A stretch of DNA of 10,356 nucleotides from a virus: UHGV virus genome UHGV-0145483. One strand, written 5' to 3'. Below the pieces are notes generated by a model. That model was given only the letters and a program-made list of their open reading frames with translations. It searched no databases and had not been told where the DNA came from. Positions 26-7,407 of this stretch are shown here, one piece after another. How positions within the stretch are numbered: position 1 is the stretch's first letter; every line of letters begins with the position of its first letter. Made by a program: the position numbers and the translations under genes.

Positions 26-562
26 GTGGTGGATGCACTACCTGAGGCAGTAGCGCGTCGTTCGCTGGGATTACCGGTGGAAAAAATCCGCTCCGTATAC
101 CGTGAGAGTGACATCGTACCGGGAGAACAGACAGCCATCAGCATACTGAAGCAGCGCACAAAAAATATTGCGCTTCCACTTCACGTCCACCAGCAACAGC
201 CCCCACCCCAGGAAAAGACGTTAGTAAGCATCGCCGTTGATCCGGAGTCTCCGGCTCAGTACCTCCAGCGCCAGAAACCACAACGGGAAGAGATGCCTGT
301 ATACACGCGCTGGGTAAAAACGCAGAAATGCATGACGTGTGGCAATCAGGCAGATGATCCGCATCACATCATTGGTCATGGACTGGGAGGTATGGGAACA
401 AAGGCTGACGATTTGTTTGTTATTCCGTTGTGCCGTAAATGCCATAACAAACTACATGCCGGAGTAAAAGATTTTGAAGAAAAACACGGCAGTCAGCTGT
501 TGTTGCTGATTCGTTTTTTAATGCACGCGAGAAATTCGGGTGTTCTGAAGTGGAAAGCATAA
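26..562 (+). CDS. nin-region phage protein with C-terminal Zn-ribbon/HNH-like domain (DUF1364/YbcO-like); 5' end ambiguous
   Basis: Frame is open from the left window edge; GTG at 26, internal ATG at 293 with weak SD gggaag. C-terminal ~90 aa carry CxxC...HH..GHG..G.GTK.DD...PLCRKCH, the Zn-binding pattern of small putative nucleases that precede rusA in lambdoid nin regions. Stop TAA 560-562 abuts the rusA ATG. Confidence 0.6.
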   Translation: MVDALPEAVARRSLGLPVEKIRSVYRESDIVPGEQTAISILKQRTKNIALPLHVHQQQPPPQEKTLVSIAVDPESPAQYLQRQKPQREEMPVYTRWVKTQKCMTCGNQADDPHHIIGHGLGGMGTKADDLFVIPLCRKCHNKLHAGVKDFEEKHGSQLLLLIRFLMHARNSGVLKWKA

Positions 563-928
563 ATGACCGAACGCATAGAATTTGTTTTGCCTTACCCGCC
601 GACGGTGAACACTTACTGGCGACGCCGTGGCAGCACATATTTTGTATCAAAAGCCGGGGAGCGTTATCGCCGGGCAGTGGCGCTTATTGTTCGCCAGCAG
701 CGGCTGAAATTAAGCCTGTCCGGAAGGTTGGCAATAAAAATTATTGCAGAACCACCGGATAAGCGCCGCCGTGACCTGGACAATATTCTGAAAGCACCGC
801 TGGATGCGCTTACGCATGCGGGGTTGTTAATGGACGATGAGCAGTTTGATGAAATCAATATTGTACGTGGTCAGCTTGTTCTTGGTGGTCGGCTGGGTGT
901 GAAGATTTACAAAATTGAGAGTGAGTGA
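563..928 (+). CDS. rusA: RusA Holliday-junction resolvase (crossover junction endodeoxyribonuclease)
   Basis: 121 aa; N-terminal LPYPPTVNTYWRRRG and central PDKRRRDLDNILKAPLDAL with catalytic Asp cluster match the RusA family; position immediately upstream of the antiterminator is typical. Confidence 0.85.
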   Translation: MTERIEFVLPYPPTVNTYWRRRGSTYFVSKAGERYRRAVALIVRQQRLKLSLSGRLAIKIIAEPPDKRRRDLDNILKAPLDALTHAGLLMDDEQFDEINIVRGQLVLGGRLGVKIYKIESE

Positions 929-936
929 GCGTAAAT

Positions 937-1464
937 ATGATATATCCGGAAATTACAGGCAAAAGCGGCGAACATTTACGCCTGAACACGCTGGAAGCAG
1001 TCTGGATCCAGGGGAAATTACGGATGTGGGGGCGGTGGTCGTATATCGGTGGGGGTAAATCCGGAAATATGTTTAACCGGTTACTGGTTTCGAAAAAGCT
1101 GACGAAAACAGCAGTTAATGAGGTTTTACGCAGAATGAAGAAATCCGGGCTGGAAAAACCGGAACTTGAGGCATTTTTTCGGGATATGACCAGAGGGAAG
1201 CAGAAGAGCTGGTTGTCACATTGTACAGACACAGAGGCGTTGATTATTGATCGCGTTATCAGTGAGGTGCTTGGGGAATATCCCGGACTAATCAATATTC
1301 TCCGGCAAAGGTACGAAGGACGGGGAATGAGCAAACTGAAAATGGCCGAAAGGTTAAATGCAGATCATCCTGAGTGGACGTTGGTTACGTGCAGACGCCG
1401 AATTGATCAGTGGTTGCGTATGGCTTTTGTTACAGAGAAAAAAATGTTGCAAACTGATCAATAA
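937..1464 (+). CDS. Q: Late-gene antiterminator Q (non-lambda Q family)
   Basis: 175 aa from ATG 937 (SD gagtgag 7 nt upstream; alternative GTG 925 overlaps the rusA stop). Sits between rusA and a short leader ending in an intrinsic terminator, the canonical Q/PR-prime/tR-prime arrangement. Family assignment is by position and size, not by a verified alignment. Confidence 0.7.
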   Translation: MIYPEITGKSGEHLRLNTLEAVWIQGKLRMWGRWSYIGGGKSGNMFNRLLVSKKLTKTAVNEVLRRMKKSGLEKPELEAFFRDMTRGKQKSWLSHCTDTEALIIDRVISEVLGEYPGLINILRQRYEGRGMSKLKMAERLNADHPEWTLVTCRRRIDQWLRMAFVTEKKMLQTDQ

Positions 1465-1536
1465 ACTGCTTCAATCCGTATAAGCTTCGCAAGGCTGTAT
1501 CGCGAGGCGAAATGCAAGTTTTTTTCGCACAAGGAA

Positions 1537-1558
1537 GCCACCGGAAGGTGGTTTTTTT
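1537..1558 (+). terminator. tR-prime-like intrinsic terminator ending a short late leader transcript
   Basis: Stem CCACC/GGTGG (1538-1542 with 1547-1551), GGAA tetraloop, then a 7-T run 1552-1558; lies about 75 nt after the Q stop. Confidence 0.5.
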
Positions 1559-1681
1559 GTGTCCGTAATATACAGCAGCGCAATAAATTCGCTGGTGGTT
1601 ATTAATACCGTTCTTTCAGCTTGCTGGCTTTTTCGACAAGAGTTATTGGTGTGTCACGTTAACCGGAAAAGGGAAAAAGAC

Positions 1682-1879
1682 ATGCTGAAACAGCAGGATA
1701 TGACCGAAACCGCCAGAGTGGTGTTTAATGAATTAAGCGTCACCGAACCGGCGACAGTCGGGGAGATTGCACAGAATACGTACCTTTCACGCGAACGCTG
1801 TCAGTTAATACTGACCCAGCTTGTTATGGCGGGGCTGGCAGACTATCAGTTCGGTTGTTACAGACGCCTTCCGCAGTGA
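1682..1879 (+). CDS. Small hypothetical protein (65 aa), possible winged-helix DNA-binding fold
   Basis: ATG 1682 preceded by aaaagggaaaaag; the longer ORF from 1559 would start inside the terminator T-run. Segment VGEIAQNTYLSRERCQLILTQLVMAGLADY resembles a wHTH recognition helix and wing. Stop overlaps a terminator hairpin. Confidence 0.5.
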   Translation: MLKQQDMTETARVVFNELSVTEPATVGEIAQNTYLSRERCQLILTQLVMAGLADYQFGCYRRLPQ

Positions 1880-2029: not shown

Positions 2030-3088
2030 ATGCTTAATACTGTAAAAATATCCAGTTGTGAGTTAATCAACGCCGACTGCCTGGAATTTATCCGGTCGTT
2101 ACCCGAAAATTCTGTTGACCTGATAGTCACGGACCCGCCGTACTTTAAAGTGAAGCCTGAGGGCTGGGATAACCAGTGGAAGGGCGACGATGATTACCTG
2201 AAATGGCTGGACCAGTGTCTGGCGCAGTTCTGGCGGGTGCTGAAACCTGCCGGAAGTCTTTACCTGTTCTGTGGCCATCGCCTGGCATCTGATATCGAAA
2301 TCATGATGCGTGAACGCTTCAGTGTGCTGAACCATATTATCTGGGCGAAGCCGTCCGGACGCTGGAACGGGTGCAACAAGGAAAGCCTGAGGGCGTATTT
2401 CCCCGCCACAGAGCGCATTCTGTTCGCGGAACATTATCAGGGGCCGTATCGCCCGAAAGATGCCGGGTATGAGGCGAAGGGCAGGGCACTGAAACAGCAT
2501 GTGATGGCCCCGCTGATTTCTTACTTTCGTGATGCGCGTGCTGCCCTGGGGATAACGGCAAAACAGATAGTGGATGCCACAGGAAAGAAAAACATGGTGT
2601 CGCACTGGTTCAGTGCCAGCCAGTGGCAGCTACCGGACGAAAGCGATTATCTGAAATTACAGGCGCTGTTTGCCCGGGTGGCAGAAGAGAAGCATCAGCG
2701 GGGTGAACTGGAAAAGCCCCACCACCAGCTGCTGGAGACGTATACTTCACTGAACCGGCAGTATGCGGAACTGCAGAGTGAATATAAGCATCTGCGGCGG
2801 TATTTTGGCGTAACTGCGCAGGTGCCGTACACGGATGTGTGGACGCATAAACCGGTGCAGTACTATCCCGGGAAACATCCGTGCGAAAAACCGGCAGAAA
2901 TGCTGCAGCAGATAATCAGTGCGAGCAGTCGTCCGGGTGACCTGGTTGCAGATTTCTTCATGGGGTCAGGTTCGACAGTCAAAGCAGCGATAGCGCTGGG
3001 ACGTCGTGCAACTGGCGTTGAGCTGGAGACTGAGCGTTTTGAGCAGACGGTCAGGGAAGTTCAGAATTTAGTCAGTCAGAACGGATGA
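2030..3088 (+). CDS. DNA amino-methyltransferase, beta class (N6-adenine or N4-cytosine)
   Basis: 352 aa; catalytic motif IV DPPY (IVTDPPYF) near the N-terminus and AdoMet motif I FxGxG (DFFMGSGST) near the C-terminus, the permuted order of beta-class amino-MTases. No adjacent restriction endonuclease is visible, so it looks orphan. Confidence 0.85.
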   Translation: MLNTVKISSCELINADCLEFIRSLPENSVDLIVTDPPYFKVKPEGWDNQWKGDDDYLKWLDQCLAQFWRVLKPAGSLYLFCGHRLASDIEIMMRERFSVLNHIIWAKPSGRWNGCNKESLRAYFPATERILFAEHYQGPYRPKDAGYEAKGRALKQHVMAPLISYFRDARAALGITAKQIVDATGKKNMVSHWFSASQWQLPDESDYLKLQALFARVAEEKHQRGELEKPHHQLLETYTSLNRQYAELQSEYKHLRRYFGVTAQVPYTDVWTHKPVQYYPGKHPCEKPAEMLQQIISASSRPGDLVADFFMGSGSTVKAAIALGRRATGVELETERFEQTVREVQNLVSQNG

Positions 3089-3128: not shown

Positions 3129-3204
3129 GGCCCTTTAGCTCAGTGGTGAGAGCGAGCGACTCATAATCGCCAGGTCGCTGGTTCAAATCCAGCAAGGGCC
3201 ACCA
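3129..3204 (+). tRNA. ileZ: tRNA with CAU anticodon, Ile2 (lysidine)-like
   Basis: Manual cloverleaf: acceptor GGCCCTT/AAGGGCC, D-arm TAGCTCAGTGG...GAGC, anticodon loop CTCATAA, T-loop GGTTCAAATCC, encoded CCA at 3202-3204. Close to E. coli ileX as recalled. Confidence 0.85.
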
Positions 3205-3211
3205 TCACATA

Positions 3212-3288
3212 CCGCCATTAGCTCATCAGGATAGAGCGCCAGCCTTCGAAGCTGGTTGCGCGGGGTTCGAGTCCTCGATGGCGGTCCA
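3212..3288 (+). tRNA. argN: tRNA-Arg, anticodon UCG (reads CGA)
   Basis: Manual fold: acceptor CCGCCAT/ATGGCGG (C1:G72), D-stem GCTC/GAGC, anticodon stem CCAGC/GCTGG with loop CTTCGAA, T-loop TTCGAGT, encoded CCA at 3286-3288. Gene name follows Stx-phage convention and is not verified. Confidence 0.75.
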
Positions 3289-3301
3289 TTATCGGTATTC
3301 T

Positions 3302-3378
3302 GCGTTGTTAGCTCAGCCGGACAGAGCAATTGCCTTCTAAGCAATCGGTCACTGGTTCGACTCCAGTACAACGCGCCA
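3302..3378 (+). tRNA. argO: tRNA-Arg, anticodon UCU (reads AGA/AGG)
   Basis: Manual fold: acceptor GCGTTGT/ACAACGC, D-stem GCTC/GAGC, anticodon stem ATTGC/GCAAT with loop CTTCTAA, T-loop TTCGACT, encoded CCA at 3376-3378. Confidence 0.8.
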
Positions 3379-3476: not shown

Positions 3477-3691
3477 AAATACCTCACAATTCAGCAAGTT
3501 GATGATTGTCTGGCTGTCAGGGATTTTGTTAAAAAAATCCTGCATGGTGAATCCCCCTGAGCGGAGGGGCGACTGGTGACGGTATAATCTCTGATTATCA
3601 AAACGAGAATGACGCGGGTTTAGTGGCACCGGGCTGAACTCACCGGGAGGCACCCGGCACCATGTTCATGGTGATACAGAAATGCGGCTTC

Positions 3692-3716
3692 AGCCCCTCT
3701 CCGGAGGGGCTTTCTT
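3692..3716 (+). terminator. Intrinsic terminator, + strand
   Basis: 8-bp stem AGCCCCTC/GAGGGGCT with TCCG loop, followed by TTCTT. Confidence 0.45.
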
Positions 3717-3722
3717 ATGGAC

Positions 3723-3944: not shown

Positions 3945-5927
3945 ATGACATTTAAACACTACGATGTGGTCAGGGCGGCGTCGCCGTCAGACCTTGCGGA
4001 GCGACTGACACAAAAACTGAAGGAGGGGTGGCAGCCATTTGGCAGCCCTGTCGCCATCACGCCTTATACCCTGATGCAGGCCATTGCGGCGGAAGGTGAT
4101 GTCACCACACCGGTGGTGGTGCAACCGTCGGGTGATGGTGGCGCTGTTATCAGCACCACCAGCGAACCGGAATATTACTTTGTCATTGCGCTGGCCGGGC
4201 AGTCCAACTCGATGTCTTTTGGCGAGGGGCTGCCGCTGCCGGAGACATATGACCGTCCGGACCCGCGTATTAAACAGCTGGCGCGTCGCAGTACGGTGAC
4301 GCCGGGTGGTGCCGCCTGTAAATATAACGACATCATTCCGGCAGACCACTGTCTGCATGATGTGCAGGATATGAGTAACCTGAATCATCCTCATGCAGAC
4401 CTGAGTAAGGGACAGTACGGTTGTGTGGGGCATGCTCTGCATGTTGCCAAAAAGCTGCTGCCGTTTATGCCTGCGAATGCGGGTATCCTTCTTGTTCCAT
4501 GTGGCCGTGGCGATTCGGGATTTACTGCGGGGGCCGAGGGGGCGTTTAACGAAGCGTCGGGAGCGACCGCAGGCTCGTCCCTGTGGGGGGCGGATAAACC
4601 GCTGTATCATGACCTGGTCAGCAGAACCCGTGCGGCCCTGAAGAAAAATCCGAAGAACGTGCTGTTATCAGTGATCTGGATGCAGGGAGAAAAAGATGTC
4701 AGTTCGGGGAGACATGCAGAACACAATGCGCTTTTCCTTGCCATGGTAAATCAGTTCCGTACGGAACTGGCAGATGTGGCAGAGCAGTGTACTGGCGGGA
4801 CAACGGCCAGCGTCCCGTGGATTTGCGGTGATACCACGTACTACTGGAAGGAAAGGTATGCAGCGCCGTATGAGGCGGTTTACGGTGGGTATAAAGGCAA
4901 AGCTGCGCAGAATATTCACTTTGTGCCGTTGATGACGGATGAGCATGGTGCGAATGTGCCGACAAACGAGCCGTCAGAAGATCCGGACATTATCACGGCG
5001 GGATACTATGGTGCCGCGTCACGCAGTAATGGTAACTGGACGACAGCCGATCGTAAAACGCACTTCAGCTCCTGGGCGCGAAGAGGCATTGTTTCAGATC
5101 GGCTGGCAGGAGAGATACTGGTGCGAGCCGGGCGTTTGCTGCCGTTCCTGAGCGGGCAGTCTGCACCGCTGGCGACCACGCCAGCCTCCACGGGGGATGC
5201 ACAGTCTGGCTCTGCGGGTCAGACGCAACAGCAGGGTGCAGGTACTTCTGCAGGCGGTCATACTGAAGCCGTAACAAGAATGGTGGCCGGATATGATGCG
5301 AACAGTGGCAGTGGTGTATGGACAGAGCAGCAGTGGAATGCGTCCGGTGGTAAAGGCACTGTGACGGATGACAGTGGCAGGAAGGCGCTGCGACTGGAAA
5401 AACAGCCGGGTAAACTGACCTCCTGGAAGATGTTCCGTACTGTTGCGGTGGAGGAGGCAAAAAATCTTCTCAGCAAGGGGGGTGAAATTGCCGTACGGTT
5501 CAAAATTCCGGATGGAAGCGAACTGGTGAACGGACAGTTTGTCTTTGGTCTCTACTGGCCGGTGTCGCAGTGGGCGTCAGGCGCGGCAGCAAACAGTATG
5601 CTGGCATCATTCTTCCTTCAGACGGATGCATCAAATCTGAATCTTATGCACCACAAGGGCACGTCGAATGCACAACTGGGTACATTTGGTGCGTTTGACC
5701 ATAACTGGCATACGGTTGTTTTCCGCTTTGCGGGAAATAACAGCGAAAGAGTCGTTCCGGTGATTGATGGTACAGAGCAGACGGCGTTTGACCTTGTGAT
5801 GTGGACAAATGATGGCTTTACAGCAGATACGCTGACGCTGACAGATATCACGGGGGCAAAAGCGACGTATCCGGTACTGCTTGATACGGTCACAGTCAAA
5901 GTTAACGAAAGCCGGGCATCATCATAA
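3945..5927 (+). CDS. nanS-p: Prophage sialate O-acetylesterase NanS-p family (DUF1737 N-domain, SGNH esterase, C-terminal beta-rich domain)
   Basis: 660 aa; SD gggagg 4 nt before the ATG. N-terminal MTFKHYDVVRA...EGWQPFGSPV matches the DUF1737-type domain of phage NanS-p proteins; SGNH block I FVIALAGQSNSMSFGEG carries the catalytic Ser; a Ser/Gly/Thr/Gln-rich linker (about aa 400-440) precedes the C-terminal domain. Position matches the gene that follows stx in Stx phages. Confidence 0.85.
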   Translation: MTFKHYDVVRAASPSDLAERLTQKLKEGWQPFGSPVAITPYTLMQAIAAEGDVTTPVVVQPSGDGGAVISTTSEPEYYFVIALAGQSNSMSFGEGLPLPETYDRPDPRIKQLARRSTVTPGGAACKYNDIIPADHCLHDVQDMSNLNHPHADLSKGQYGCVGHALHVAKKLLPFMPANAGILLVPCGRGDSGFTAGAEGAFNEASGATAGSSLWGADKPLYHDLVSRTRAALKKNPKNVLLSVIWMQGEKDVSSGRHAEHNALFLAMVNQFRTELADVAEQCTGGTTASVPWICGDTTYYWKERYAAPYEAVYGGYKGKAAQNIHFVPLMTDEHGANVPTNEPSEDPDIITAGYYGAASRSNGNWTTADRKTHFSSWARRGIVSDRLAGEILVRAGRLLPFLSGQSAPLATTPASTGDAQSGSAGQTQQQGAGTSAGGHTEAVTRMVAGYDANSGSGVWTEQQWNASGGKGTVTDDSGRKALRLEKQPGKLTSWKMFRTVAVEEAKNLLSKGGEIAVRFKIPDGSELVNGQFVFGLYWPVSQWASGAAANSMLASFFLQTDASNLNLMHHKGTSNAQLGTFGAFDHNWHTVVFRFAGNNSERVVPVIDGTEQTAFDLVMWTNDGFTADTLTLTDITGAKATYPVLLDTVTVKVNESRASS

Positions 5928-6653: not shown

Positions 6654-6869
6654 ATGTATCAGATGGAAAAAATATCAACGGGCATAGCCTATGGTACTTC
6701 TGCGGGCAGTGCGGGTTACTGGTTTCTACAGTGGTTGGATCAGGTTACTCCGTCACAGTGGGCTGCTATCGGGGTTTTGGGGAGCCTGTGTCTGGGGTTC
6801 CTGACATACCTGACGAATCTGTATTTCAAGATTAAAGAAGACCGGCGCAAACCTGCGCGGGGAGAGTAA
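6654..6869 (+). CDS. S: Class II holin, phage 21 S (pinholin) family, dual-start
   Basis: 71 aa [31 protein letters not shown]...[17 protein letters not shown] closely matches the S21 pinholin as recalled; two in-frame starts at Met1 (6654) and Met4 (6663); two TM segments; stop 5 nt before the endolysin start. Confidence 0.85.
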
Positions 6870-6873
6870 GCTG

Positions 6874-7407
6874 ATGAGCAGGAAACTCCACTATGGTTTA
6901 TCGGTAGCCGTTCTGGCGCTGATTGCCACAGGTGCTTCTGCGCCTGAAATCCTCGACCAGTTTCTTGACGAAAAAGAAGGTAACCACACCACGGCATACC
7001 GTGATGGTGCGGGGATCTGGACCATCTGCCGTGGTGCCATCATGGTGGATGGCAAACCTGTCGTTCCGGGCATGAAGTTGTCGAAGGAAAAATGCGACCA
7101 GGTTAACGCCATTGAGCGTGATAAAGCGCTGGCGTGGGTGGAGAAAAACATCAGAGTGCTGCTGACCGAACCCCAGAAAGCGGGGATCGCGTCATTCTGT
7201 CCGTACAACATTGGTCCCGGTAAGTGTTTCCCGTCGACGTTTTATAAACGAATTAATGCAGGCGATCGCAGGGGGGCGTGTGAGGCGATTCGCTGGTGGA
7301 TTAAGGACGGTGGCAGAGACTGCCGTATTCGCTCAAACAACTGTTACGGTCAGGTATCCCGTCGCGACCAGGAGAGTGCGCTGGCGTGCTGGGGAATTGA
7401 CAGATAA
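6874..7407 (+). CDS. R: SAR endolysin (phage lysozyme / muramidase, GH24, R21-like)
   Basis: 177 aa; SD ggagag; N-terminal weakly hydrophobic Gly/Ala-rich signal-arrest-release segment LSVAVLALIATGASAPEIL; T4-lysozyme-like catalytic E...D...T spacing in EGNHTTAYRDGAGIWT; directly follows the pinholin. Confidence 0.85.
   Translation: MSRKLHYGLSVAVLALIATGASAPEILDQFLDEKEGNHTTAYRDGAGIWTICRGAIMVDGKPVVPGMKLSKEKCDQVNAIERDKALAWVEKNIRVLLTEPQKAGIASFCPYNIGPGKCFPSTFYKRINAGDRRGACEAIRWWIKDGGRDCRIRSNNCYGQVSRRDQESALACWGIDR

Follow-up and report, generated by a model that had tools for sequence, protein, structure and literature searches.

We report that the segment 1438-1558 of a 10,356-nt stretch of viral DNA (UHGV virus genome UHGV-0145483; the whole stretch is called the window hereafter) is most probably the late-gene control cassette of a lambdoid prophage, comprising the late promoter PR', a Q-utilization site and the terminator tR', and arranged as a switch of the type used by phage 21 with its antiterminator Q21. 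The window itself covers the region from the antiterminator gene Q to the lysis genes of an Escherichia coli prophage. Our reading is built on the following: 1) the product of the gene upstream is homologous to Q21; 2) the cassette is conserved downstream of related Q genes; 3) its geometry is fixed; 4) the class of the Q recognition helix goes with that of a motif in the promoter spacer; and 5) a terminator follows. By analogy with phages 21 and lambda, the promoter would be active, transcription would start and pause at the predicted places, and Q would bind and bring about read-through. The initial annotation of this DNA had singled out 1465-1558 as the PR'-tR' interval of Q and a source of a candidate Q-regulated small RNA (sRNA). 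Alignment with a cassette common to 54 loci supports this placement; the functional unit, however, begins at ~1438 and not at 1465, because the conserved promoter starts inside the open reading frame (ORF) of Q. The elements of the cassette are as follows.

937-1464 (+): Q antiterminator gene, DUF1133 branch of the Q21 superfamily (Pfam and profile match)
1438-1444 (+): A7 tract at the position of an UP element, adjoining the -35 on its upstream side (sequence reading; putative function)
1447-1452 (+): predicted PR' -35 hexamer TTGCAA, inside the 3' end of the Q ORF (alignment with 54 relatives)
1455-1460 (+): predicted Q-binding element (QBE) subsite TGATCA (5/6 match to the phage 21 subsite TGAGCA)
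1463-1469 (+): conserved spacer block AAACTGC, with TG at 1467-1468 as a TGn extended -10 (column conservation)
1470-1475 (+): predicted PR' -10 hexamer TTCAAT (alignment with relatives; non-canonical, T for A at position 2)
1481-1486 (+): -10-like hexamer TAAGCT, predicted sigma-dependent pause element (SDPE; invariance and identity with phage 21)
1482-1558 (+): predicted terminated PR' transcript of ~77 nt (start from -10 spacing and phage 21 geometry, end from the U tract)
1484-1508 (+): leader 5' stem-loop, GCUUCGC / 11-nt loop / GCGAGGC (fold of -10.6 kcal/mol; within the conserved +6 to +30 block)
1519-1525 (+): internal U7 tract in a single-stranded linker (fold; not a terminator)
1531-1558 (+): tR' intrinsic terminator, core hairpin 1538-1551 and U7 1552-1558 (fold and comparison)

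The Q gene and the conserved late cassette

The initial annotation had taken the gene upstream of the cassette for Q, and we agree. The ORF at 937-1464, which ends with TAA at 1462-1464, encodes a 175-residue product matching DUF1133 with 328.7 bits and PF06530 with 33.1 bits (Pfam cut-off 26), the latter being the Q21/Q933W family (Yin et al. 2019). Although the single window sequence aligns weakly with Q21 in a pairwise match (E = 0.13), a profile made from seven members of the family finds the Q21 structures 6P18/6JNX with E = 3e-6; the match covers residues 56-154 of Q21, in the DNA-binding half, and takes in the recognition helix. In this alignment the Q21 helix LATCRREVDEIL (TCRREVD) falls on the family motif L(x)TCxxRIxxWL, and the corresponding helix of the window Q is LVTCRRRIDQWL, containing TCRRRID. 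The homologues carry a Q annotation in phage records, and the synteny DUF968-RusA-Q ... holin-lysozyme supports the same identity. At the level of sequence, these comparisons identify the gene at 937-1464 as a Q antiterminator homologous to Q21.

For comparison across Enterobacterales, we assembled the Q-downstream regions of four phages, of Sakai prophage Sp9 and of 59 loci found with the Q-family profile in contigs representing one genome per species; 54 of these sequences were aligned, leaving aside shortened or divergent cases and three IsrK-type loci. The aligned loci span Escherichia, Klebsiella, Enterobacter, Citrobacter, Serratia, Yersinia, Xenorhabdus, Providencia, Proteus and Edwardsiella and share a common plan. 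At or just after the Q stop come, in order, an A-tract (often), a -35 hexamer, a spacer of 16-17 nt with conserved content, a -10 hexamer and TAnGCT; a conserved block reaching to about +30, a variable linker and a strong terminator make up the 3' part. The most conserved promoter columns, T-27 and T-7, are invariant (100% in 48 distinct sequences). Counted from the predicted start through the U tract, the leaders have a median length of 68 nt, and 44 of the 46 detected terminators end at 58-106 nt, so that a short leader is, as judged from the alignment, a property of the family and not peculiar to the window copy, which measures 77 nt. The interval had been described as very short; for this type of Q it is not unusual, the family median being what it is and the terminator of phage 21 ending at about +50.

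It had also been held that no convincing -35/-10 pair was present, with TATAAG (1479-1484) as the best -10 candidate. The alignment instead reveals a conserved predicted pair, TTGCAA at 1447-1452 and TTCAAT at 1470-1475, separated by 17 nt. Upstream of it, several relatives (Sp9, 683R6, Yersinia and Xenorhabdus among them) have A-rich runs equivalent to the A7 tract. The -35 hexamer aligns with TTGACT, TTGATT and TTGAAT of relatives, 16-17 nt 5' of the -10, and its counterpart in phage 21 is the annotated TTGACA; the -10 hexamer aligns with TATAGT, TAGTAT, TAAATT and TTGAAT. Within the spacer, the block AAACTGC is likewise conserved (A-18 88%, A-17 90%, T-15 83%, G-14 69%). TATAAG is indeed present at the coordinates given, but it is not conserved as a -10 (relatives have TGTAAG, GCTACG or GATAGG), has no -35 partner and overlaps the invariant TAnGCT at 1481-1486. 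What it overlaps is in all likelihood a pause element, because TAAGCT in the window is identical, letter for letter, to the annotated SDPE of phage 21. This hexamer overlaps the predicted start site at ~1480-1483 and is among the most constant parts of the family, with T-1, A+1, C+4 and T+5 at 100% and G+3 at 96% of 48 distinct leaders. We considered TAAGCT as a true -10 and rejected it: no -35 stands at 16-18 bp, and phage 21 annotates the same hexamer as a pause element.

The closest known system is that of phage 21 (record OL657228), in which the pR' -35 (TTGACA) lies 7 nt 3' of the Q stop, the -10 is AACACT, the start site is annotated, the two Q-binding repeats are QBEu (ATTGAGCA) and QBEd (AATGAGCA), the SDPE TAAGCTG is at +2 and the terminator ends at about +50. 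The two systems have in common a homologous Q (by the profile match), a promoter placed at the Q stop or shortly past it, a spacer subsite of the TGAGCA type located 26 bp 5' of the pause element, the pause hexamer itself and an intrinsic terminator within tens of nt downstream. They differ in that 1) Q21 has 162 residues, compared with 175-192 for Q of the DUF1133 branch, and pairwise similarity is weak; 2) phage 21 has two QBE repeats whereas one class-specific subsite is found here, the QBEd position being occupied by AAA(G/C)TG independently of Q class; 3) the leader is ~50 nt in phage 21 and ~77 nt here, and the +6 to +30 block is absent from phage 21; and 4) the -10 is AACACT in phage 21 vs. 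TTCAAT here.

As for the terminator, the initial annotation had estimated about 75 nt from the Q stop to the first hairpin, and we measured 73 nt to the hairpin 1538-1551 with its U7. The sequence reads CCACC-GGAA-GGTGG followed by T7, with an A/G-rich 5' flank that pairs with the U tract; RNA 1526-1558 folds at -14.7 kcal/mol (z = -4.3), and none of 200 shuffles was as stable. A canonical terminator occupies the equivalent place in 46 of the 54 homologous loci, in many genera, which argues that the one in the window is not there by chance. The consensus scan listed the hairpin 1538-1551 on the minus strand only, and the plus-strand call rests on folding and comparison. With an A-rich run bordering it on one side and a U-rich run on the other, the hairpin folds on the minus strand as well (-12.7 kcal/mol, z = -3.1), there with a weaker tail (CUUCCUUGUG); tR' could also stop antisense transcription coming from the small ORF downstream. 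The T7 at 1519-1525 was discarded as a terminator, since ~10 unpaired nt separate it from the nearest stem and no hairpin abuts it.

The Sp9 and EDL933 copies have T6 in place of this T7, which bears on another reading of the region, that an 18-codon leader peptide (ATG 1513 to TAA 1569) is translated and thereby modulates termination. The ORF at 1513-1569 (+) does span the terminator and is preceded, 5 nt upstream, by a Shine-Dalgarno-like GAGG. The shorter T run, however, shifts the frame in both Sp9 and EDL933, and there is no corresponding ATG in other genera. Because the frame is broken in these two copies, ORF 1513-1569 is probably not coding, and we judge control by a leader peptide to be extremely unlikely.

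The predicted Q-binding site and the proposed switch

A comparison with the Q sites of phage 21 had been suggested, and it proved informative in part: TGATCA lies at the position of QBEu, starting 26 bp 5' of TAnGCT as QBEu does from the SDPE in phage 21, but a second repeat at the QBEd position was not seen. The recognition helix of Q21 contacts two direct TGAGCA-type repeats, 8 bp apart, that form the QBE in the promoter spacer (Shi et al. 2019). Dividing the 54 cassettes into helix classes by the four recognition-helix residues that follow the conserved T, we found that the helix class goes with the class of the spacer motif. Helix CRRR pairs with TGA[GAT][CA][CA] in 18 of 19 loci, CE.R with T[AG]CG[CT][GA] in all 22 and [YHC]Q[DN]R with T[GA]CCGA in all 9, amounting to agreement in 49 of 50 loci over the three main classes, each of which occurs in several genera. 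The spacer motif always keeps a constant distance, and for the TGA class this is 26 bp from TAnGCT in 18/18. The block AAACTGC, which occupies the place of QBEd, is by comparison independent of helix class.

The contrast between the window and Sakai Sp9 is of the same kind. The window has TCRRRID with TGATCA and Sp9 has TCEKRIA with TTACGCAG, so that both helix and spacer differ, although from 1483 on the two sequences are almost the same. We surmise that this is the pattern to be expected if a Q-specificity module, consisting of helix and operator, had been swapped by recombination.

Based on the above, we propose that host sigma-70 RNA polymerase would start at ~1482 from a promoter whose -35 lies within the end of Q, that sigma region 2 would re-bind TAAGCT (1481-1486) and that the polymerase would then pause a few bases downstream. 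In the presence of Q, helix TCRRRID would bind TGATCA (1455-1460) in the spacer, 26 bp 5' of the pause element, and Q would load onto the paused polymerase, enabling it to pass tR' and the terminators beyond on its way to the lysis genes, which begin at 6654. Without Q, the situation of the dormant prophage, transcription would end at U7 1552-1558, releasing an RNA of ~77 nt. The lambda system is alike in its promoter next to Q, its QBE between -35 and -10, its -10-like pause element at the transcript start and the short terminated RNA (6S RNA) made without Q from PR'-qut-tR'. It differs in having an unrelated Q family (PF03589), a terminated RNA of 194 nt and the need for a third, -35-like element.

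Several points weigh against the late-switch interpretation. First, position 2 of the PR' -10 hexamer TTCAAT is not the A found there almost universally, which leaves basal promoter strength uncertain, and activity may be low; a generic promoter scan, which requires A at this position, did not list PR'. Second, where transcription starts, that it pauses and that it depends on Q are predicted from sequence. Third, the helix-motif classes are partly confounded by shared ancestry, though each class occurs in several genera. Fourth, the window holds a single class-specific subsite, without a second class-specific repeat at the QBEd position, as opposed to the two direct repeats needed by Q21 (Shi et al. 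2019). Fifth, the window Q may be inactive. Compared with the otherwise identical allele of E. coli S19-651, it carries a 33-bp in-frame deletion at 1414/1415 that takes out 11 residues (GISEFMLHAPM) directly C-terminal to the recognition helix, from a stretch that all family members conserve; the deletion is found in 0 of 5426 complete E. coli genomes, and the intact allele is found in 59. In view of this unique loss from a conserved segment, the late switch of the window prophage may depend on Q supplied by another prophage or may be locked off.

Some of these same points would fit another reading, in which the hairpin and U7 merely end the early-right operon after Q, the promoter is inactive and no short RNA is made from the window copy. 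The terminator lies 73 nt past the Q stop, the -10 is non-canonical, and the uniquely deleted Q allele suggests that the prophage may be decaying. Nevertheless, a promoter, a QBE-like motif and TAnGCT stand at fixed spacing between the Q stop and the terminator in ~50 loci across genera, and the pause element is identical to that of phage 21; such conservation would not be expected of inert DNA. Ending upstream transcription and serving as tR' are, moreover, compatible. We thus consider an inert operon end very unlikely and retain the late switch as the preferred reading of 1438-1558.

The predicted short RNA

It had been anticipated that, without Q, transcription from the late promoter would yield a short RNA, and this accords with the predicted transcript of ~77 nt (~1482-1558), for which the start at ~1482 (±2) derives from phage 21 geometry and the end would fall in the U7 tract. 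From its 5' end, the predicted RNA would consist of 2 unpaired nt, a stem-loop of 7 bp (1484-1490 paired with 1502-1508), a largely unpaired U-rich linker that includes the internal U7, and the terminator hairpin with its tail. Its counterpart in Sakai Sp9 corresponds to ~1772431-1772508 (+) of NC_002695.2. The U7 tail (1552-1558) and the U7 at 1519-1525 in the unpaired linker are general features of Hfq-dependent sRNAs, necessary but not sufficient.

The 5' stem-loop falls in the +6 to +30 block, in which G+8 (98%), G+13 (96%), T+15 (92%) and A+18 (94%) are highly conserved among 48 distinct leaders. The block, together with its hairpin, might be a separate element, acting as a signal in the DNA or the nascent RNA that tunes the pause or Q loading, or as protection against RNase E; its absence from phage 21 agrees with such a role, as do the leaders of the E. 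coli and Klebsiella groups, which fold with z = -2.5 to -5.5 and leave only 2 unpaired 5' nt. Most lineages can fold +3 to +30 into an analogous hairpin, not in a common register. On the other hand, RNAalifold found no common structure in the leaders of the relatives, and in a fixed-register count the E. coli helix was paired in just 35% of cells, below shuffled controls. In Serratia, Yersinia, Xenorhabdus and Providencia the leaders hardly exceed their shuffles in stability, and the sense strand has no consistent advantage over the antisense strand (25 vs. 19). We do not claim a conserved RNA structure here. The block may work through the DNA, in pausing or Q loading, or through the RNA, by protecting its 5' end, and its being an element separate from the late switch appears doubtful.

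One may also view the ~77-nt RNA as a stable regulatory sRNA which, with or without Hfq, would act in trans on mRNAs of the host or the prophage in lysogeny. There are precedents in StxS, a terminated PR' transcript, and in IsrK, which lies behind Q genes of the DUF1133 type. The anatomy also fits, with a 5' stem-loop from +3, a single-stranded U-rich linker and a terminator hairpin with a U7 tail, and the element is found in 978 of 5426 complete E. coli genomes, in up to 4 copies each. Against this, we found no expression, Hfq-binding or target data in the Hfq cross-linking and cDNA analysis (Hfq-CRAC) table or in searchable full text, and neither the leader nor the terminator string matched any searchable paper. 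Rfam gave no match in 1400-1700 even at E <= 10. The table of orphan Hfq peaks of Sakai (Tree 2014), from which peaks within 100 nt of genes were filtered out, has no entry on the short RNA, and the tables from cross-linking, ligation and sequencing of hybrids (CLASH; Waters 2017) have no relevant entry. In addition, the linker, which would serve as the seed, varies between lineages, the conserved parts are those expected for Q loading, and the promoter is possibly weak. On balance, a regulatory role in trans seems unlikely to us.

The resemblance to Shiga toxin (Stx) phages deserves separate treatment, since the initial annotation had stated, correctly, that a short late transcript of these phages is reported to act as an sRNA, and had regarded the window transcript as its equivalent. 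The RNA in question is StxS (EcOnc15), the terminated PR' transcript of Stx1/Stx2a phages, which is bound by Hfq, activates rpoS and represses stx1B; its 258-nt primary transcript is cut by RNase E to 74 nt, and its occurrence correlates with a Q of 144 residues (Sy et al. 2020, PMC7547250). Like StxS, the predicted RNA would be a by-product of Q-controlled termination in lysogens, arising directly 3' of Q. The equivalence goes no further: the Q here is a DUF1133 protein of 175 residues, the predicted RNA has ~77 nt as opposed to a 258-nt precursor, and Hfq binding and targets (rpoS, stx1B) have been shown for StxS and for nothing in the window. StxS has no sequence in common with the window, and the Stx phage records match it only from ~1550 onward.

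The second precedent, IsrK of Salmonella Gifsy-1, comes nearer in position than StxS; it lies 3' of antQ and is a characterized regulator (Hershko-Shalev et al. 2016, PMC4825925). Among our loci, the IsrK model (RF01394, 77 nt) matches one of E. coli (L014, 75.6 bits) and one of Salmonella (L018, 67.1 bits), starting in both 33 nt after the stop of a DUF1133-type Q gene, which is the antQ-isrK arrangement of Gifsy-1. The likeness lies in the terminated RNA of 77 nt, in its start ~33 nt past the stop codon of a DUF1133-family Q (75-76% identity to the query profile), and in some read-through of the IsrK terminator into downstream genes. The IsrK loci nonetheless differ in lacking the TAnGCT block and in carrying C4 and c4-a1b1 RNA elements like those of P1 immI. 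IsrK was rejected as the identity of the window RNA: the sequences are unrelated, and a search with RF01394 found nothing at the gathering threshold, nor in 1400-1700 with the cut-off relaxed to E <= 10. In L014 (E. coli ECMA0423, 2075-2276) and L018 (Salmonella, 2088-2268), IsrK stands beside a P1-type C4 antisense RNA, joined in L014 by c4-a1b1. With these elements behind a DUF1133-type Q, the Gifsy-1 isrK locus looks like an immI-type (c4-icd-ant) module inserted at the position of the late promoter.

Other prophage sRNAs were considered and set aside. HnrS (EcOnc10-12; 66 nt; Sp9, Sp10 and Sp12) was suspected because of its size and copy number. It is characterized by a location between Rz and the terminase genes, with transcription against the direction of the late genes, and its Sakai coordinates accordingly fall after the lysis genes, on the opposite strand, between the endopeptidase and DNase/terminase genes; its stretch has no counterpart in the window, and pairing with hha was unconvincing. 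EcOnc33 (Sp6), EcOnc13 and EcOnc32 (Sp3) have other locations, EcOnc49 runs antisense to the small ORF downstream and is not the short RNA, and PasA, PasC and PasD are positioned around the esterase and holin genes.

Genomic setting and implications

The remaining features of the window are as follows.

26-562 (+): DUF968/HNH gene
563-928 (+): rusA
1682-1879 (+): TrmB-like small ORF
2030-3088 (+): DNA methyltransferase gene
3129-3378 (+): three tRNA genes
3513-3722 (+): sRNA family STnc100 (RF02076; full-length match, 158.8 bits)
3945-5927 (+): nanS-p-type esterase gene
6654-6869 (+): P21-type holin gene
6874-7407 (+): lysozyme gene

The nearest genome is that of E. coli S19-651, identical over 1300-1700 apart from the 33 bp of Q, and the gene order of the window is matched by Sakai prophage Sp9 and by a prophage of EDL933. 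Phages carrying Stx2a or Stx2d and phiP27 are 90-100% identical to the window from ~1550-1585 onward, that is, over the small ORF and its upstream region; the Q-PR'-tR' module of the window, by contrast, is not shared by these phages. The recombination boundary with respect to these phages is located right at the terminator.

Additional RNA genes of the prophage deserve mention. The peak EcOnc49 in the Hfq-CRAC data of Sakai (Sp9, minus strand) is antisense to the TrmB-like ORF and corresponds to ~1814-1858 (-) of the window. Since the peak maps to the ORF, whose Sp9 copy shares 95% identity with 1682-1879, the small ORF just 3' of the late cassette may be overlapped by an antisense RNA; a terminator-like site is found at 1695-1683 (-). 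STnc100 lies between the tRNA cluster and the esterase gene, with its terminator facing a minus-strand terminator at 3750-3729. This position is the 'moron' site, at which convergent prophage sRNAs have been described in enterohemorrhagic E. coli (EHEC). Finally, ARAGORN calls the first tRNA (3129-3204) Met (CAT); because the homologous Sakai genes are annotated as tRNA-Ile (ileZ, anticodon cat), it is probably a lysidine-modified Ile2 tRNA.

Taken by itself, the cassette of the window is the expected lambdoid late switch and leaves the understanding of such phages unchanged. For DUF1133, a domain listed as of 'unknown function' in Pfam and widespread in prophages, the comparison provides a concrete candidate regulatory site on the plan of phage 21, one that keeps the pause hexamer and the 26-bp geometry of that phage. 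The pairing of helix and motif further suggests a candidate recognition code, in which TCRRR goes with TGAGCA-like sites, TCE(K/S/T/N)R with TT(A/G)CGCG and T(Y/H/C)Q(D/N)R with T(G/A)CCGA. Such a code would predict which prophage Qs cross-activate the late operons of others in multi-prophage strains, EHEC for example, and would be relevant to how toxin and effector genes in late operons are controlled. The predicted ~77-nt RNA, present in many pathogenic E. coli, is a defined candidate for a regulator resembling StxS or IsrK. That it represents a third widespread class of late-promoter regulatory RNA after these two, with a 5' hairpin that stabilizes it or assists Q loading, is a speculative proposal to which we give rather little credence; if true, a regulatory RNA would be present in 1-4 copies in about one fifth of sequenced E. 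coli, including EHEC O157, O26, O111 and O145.

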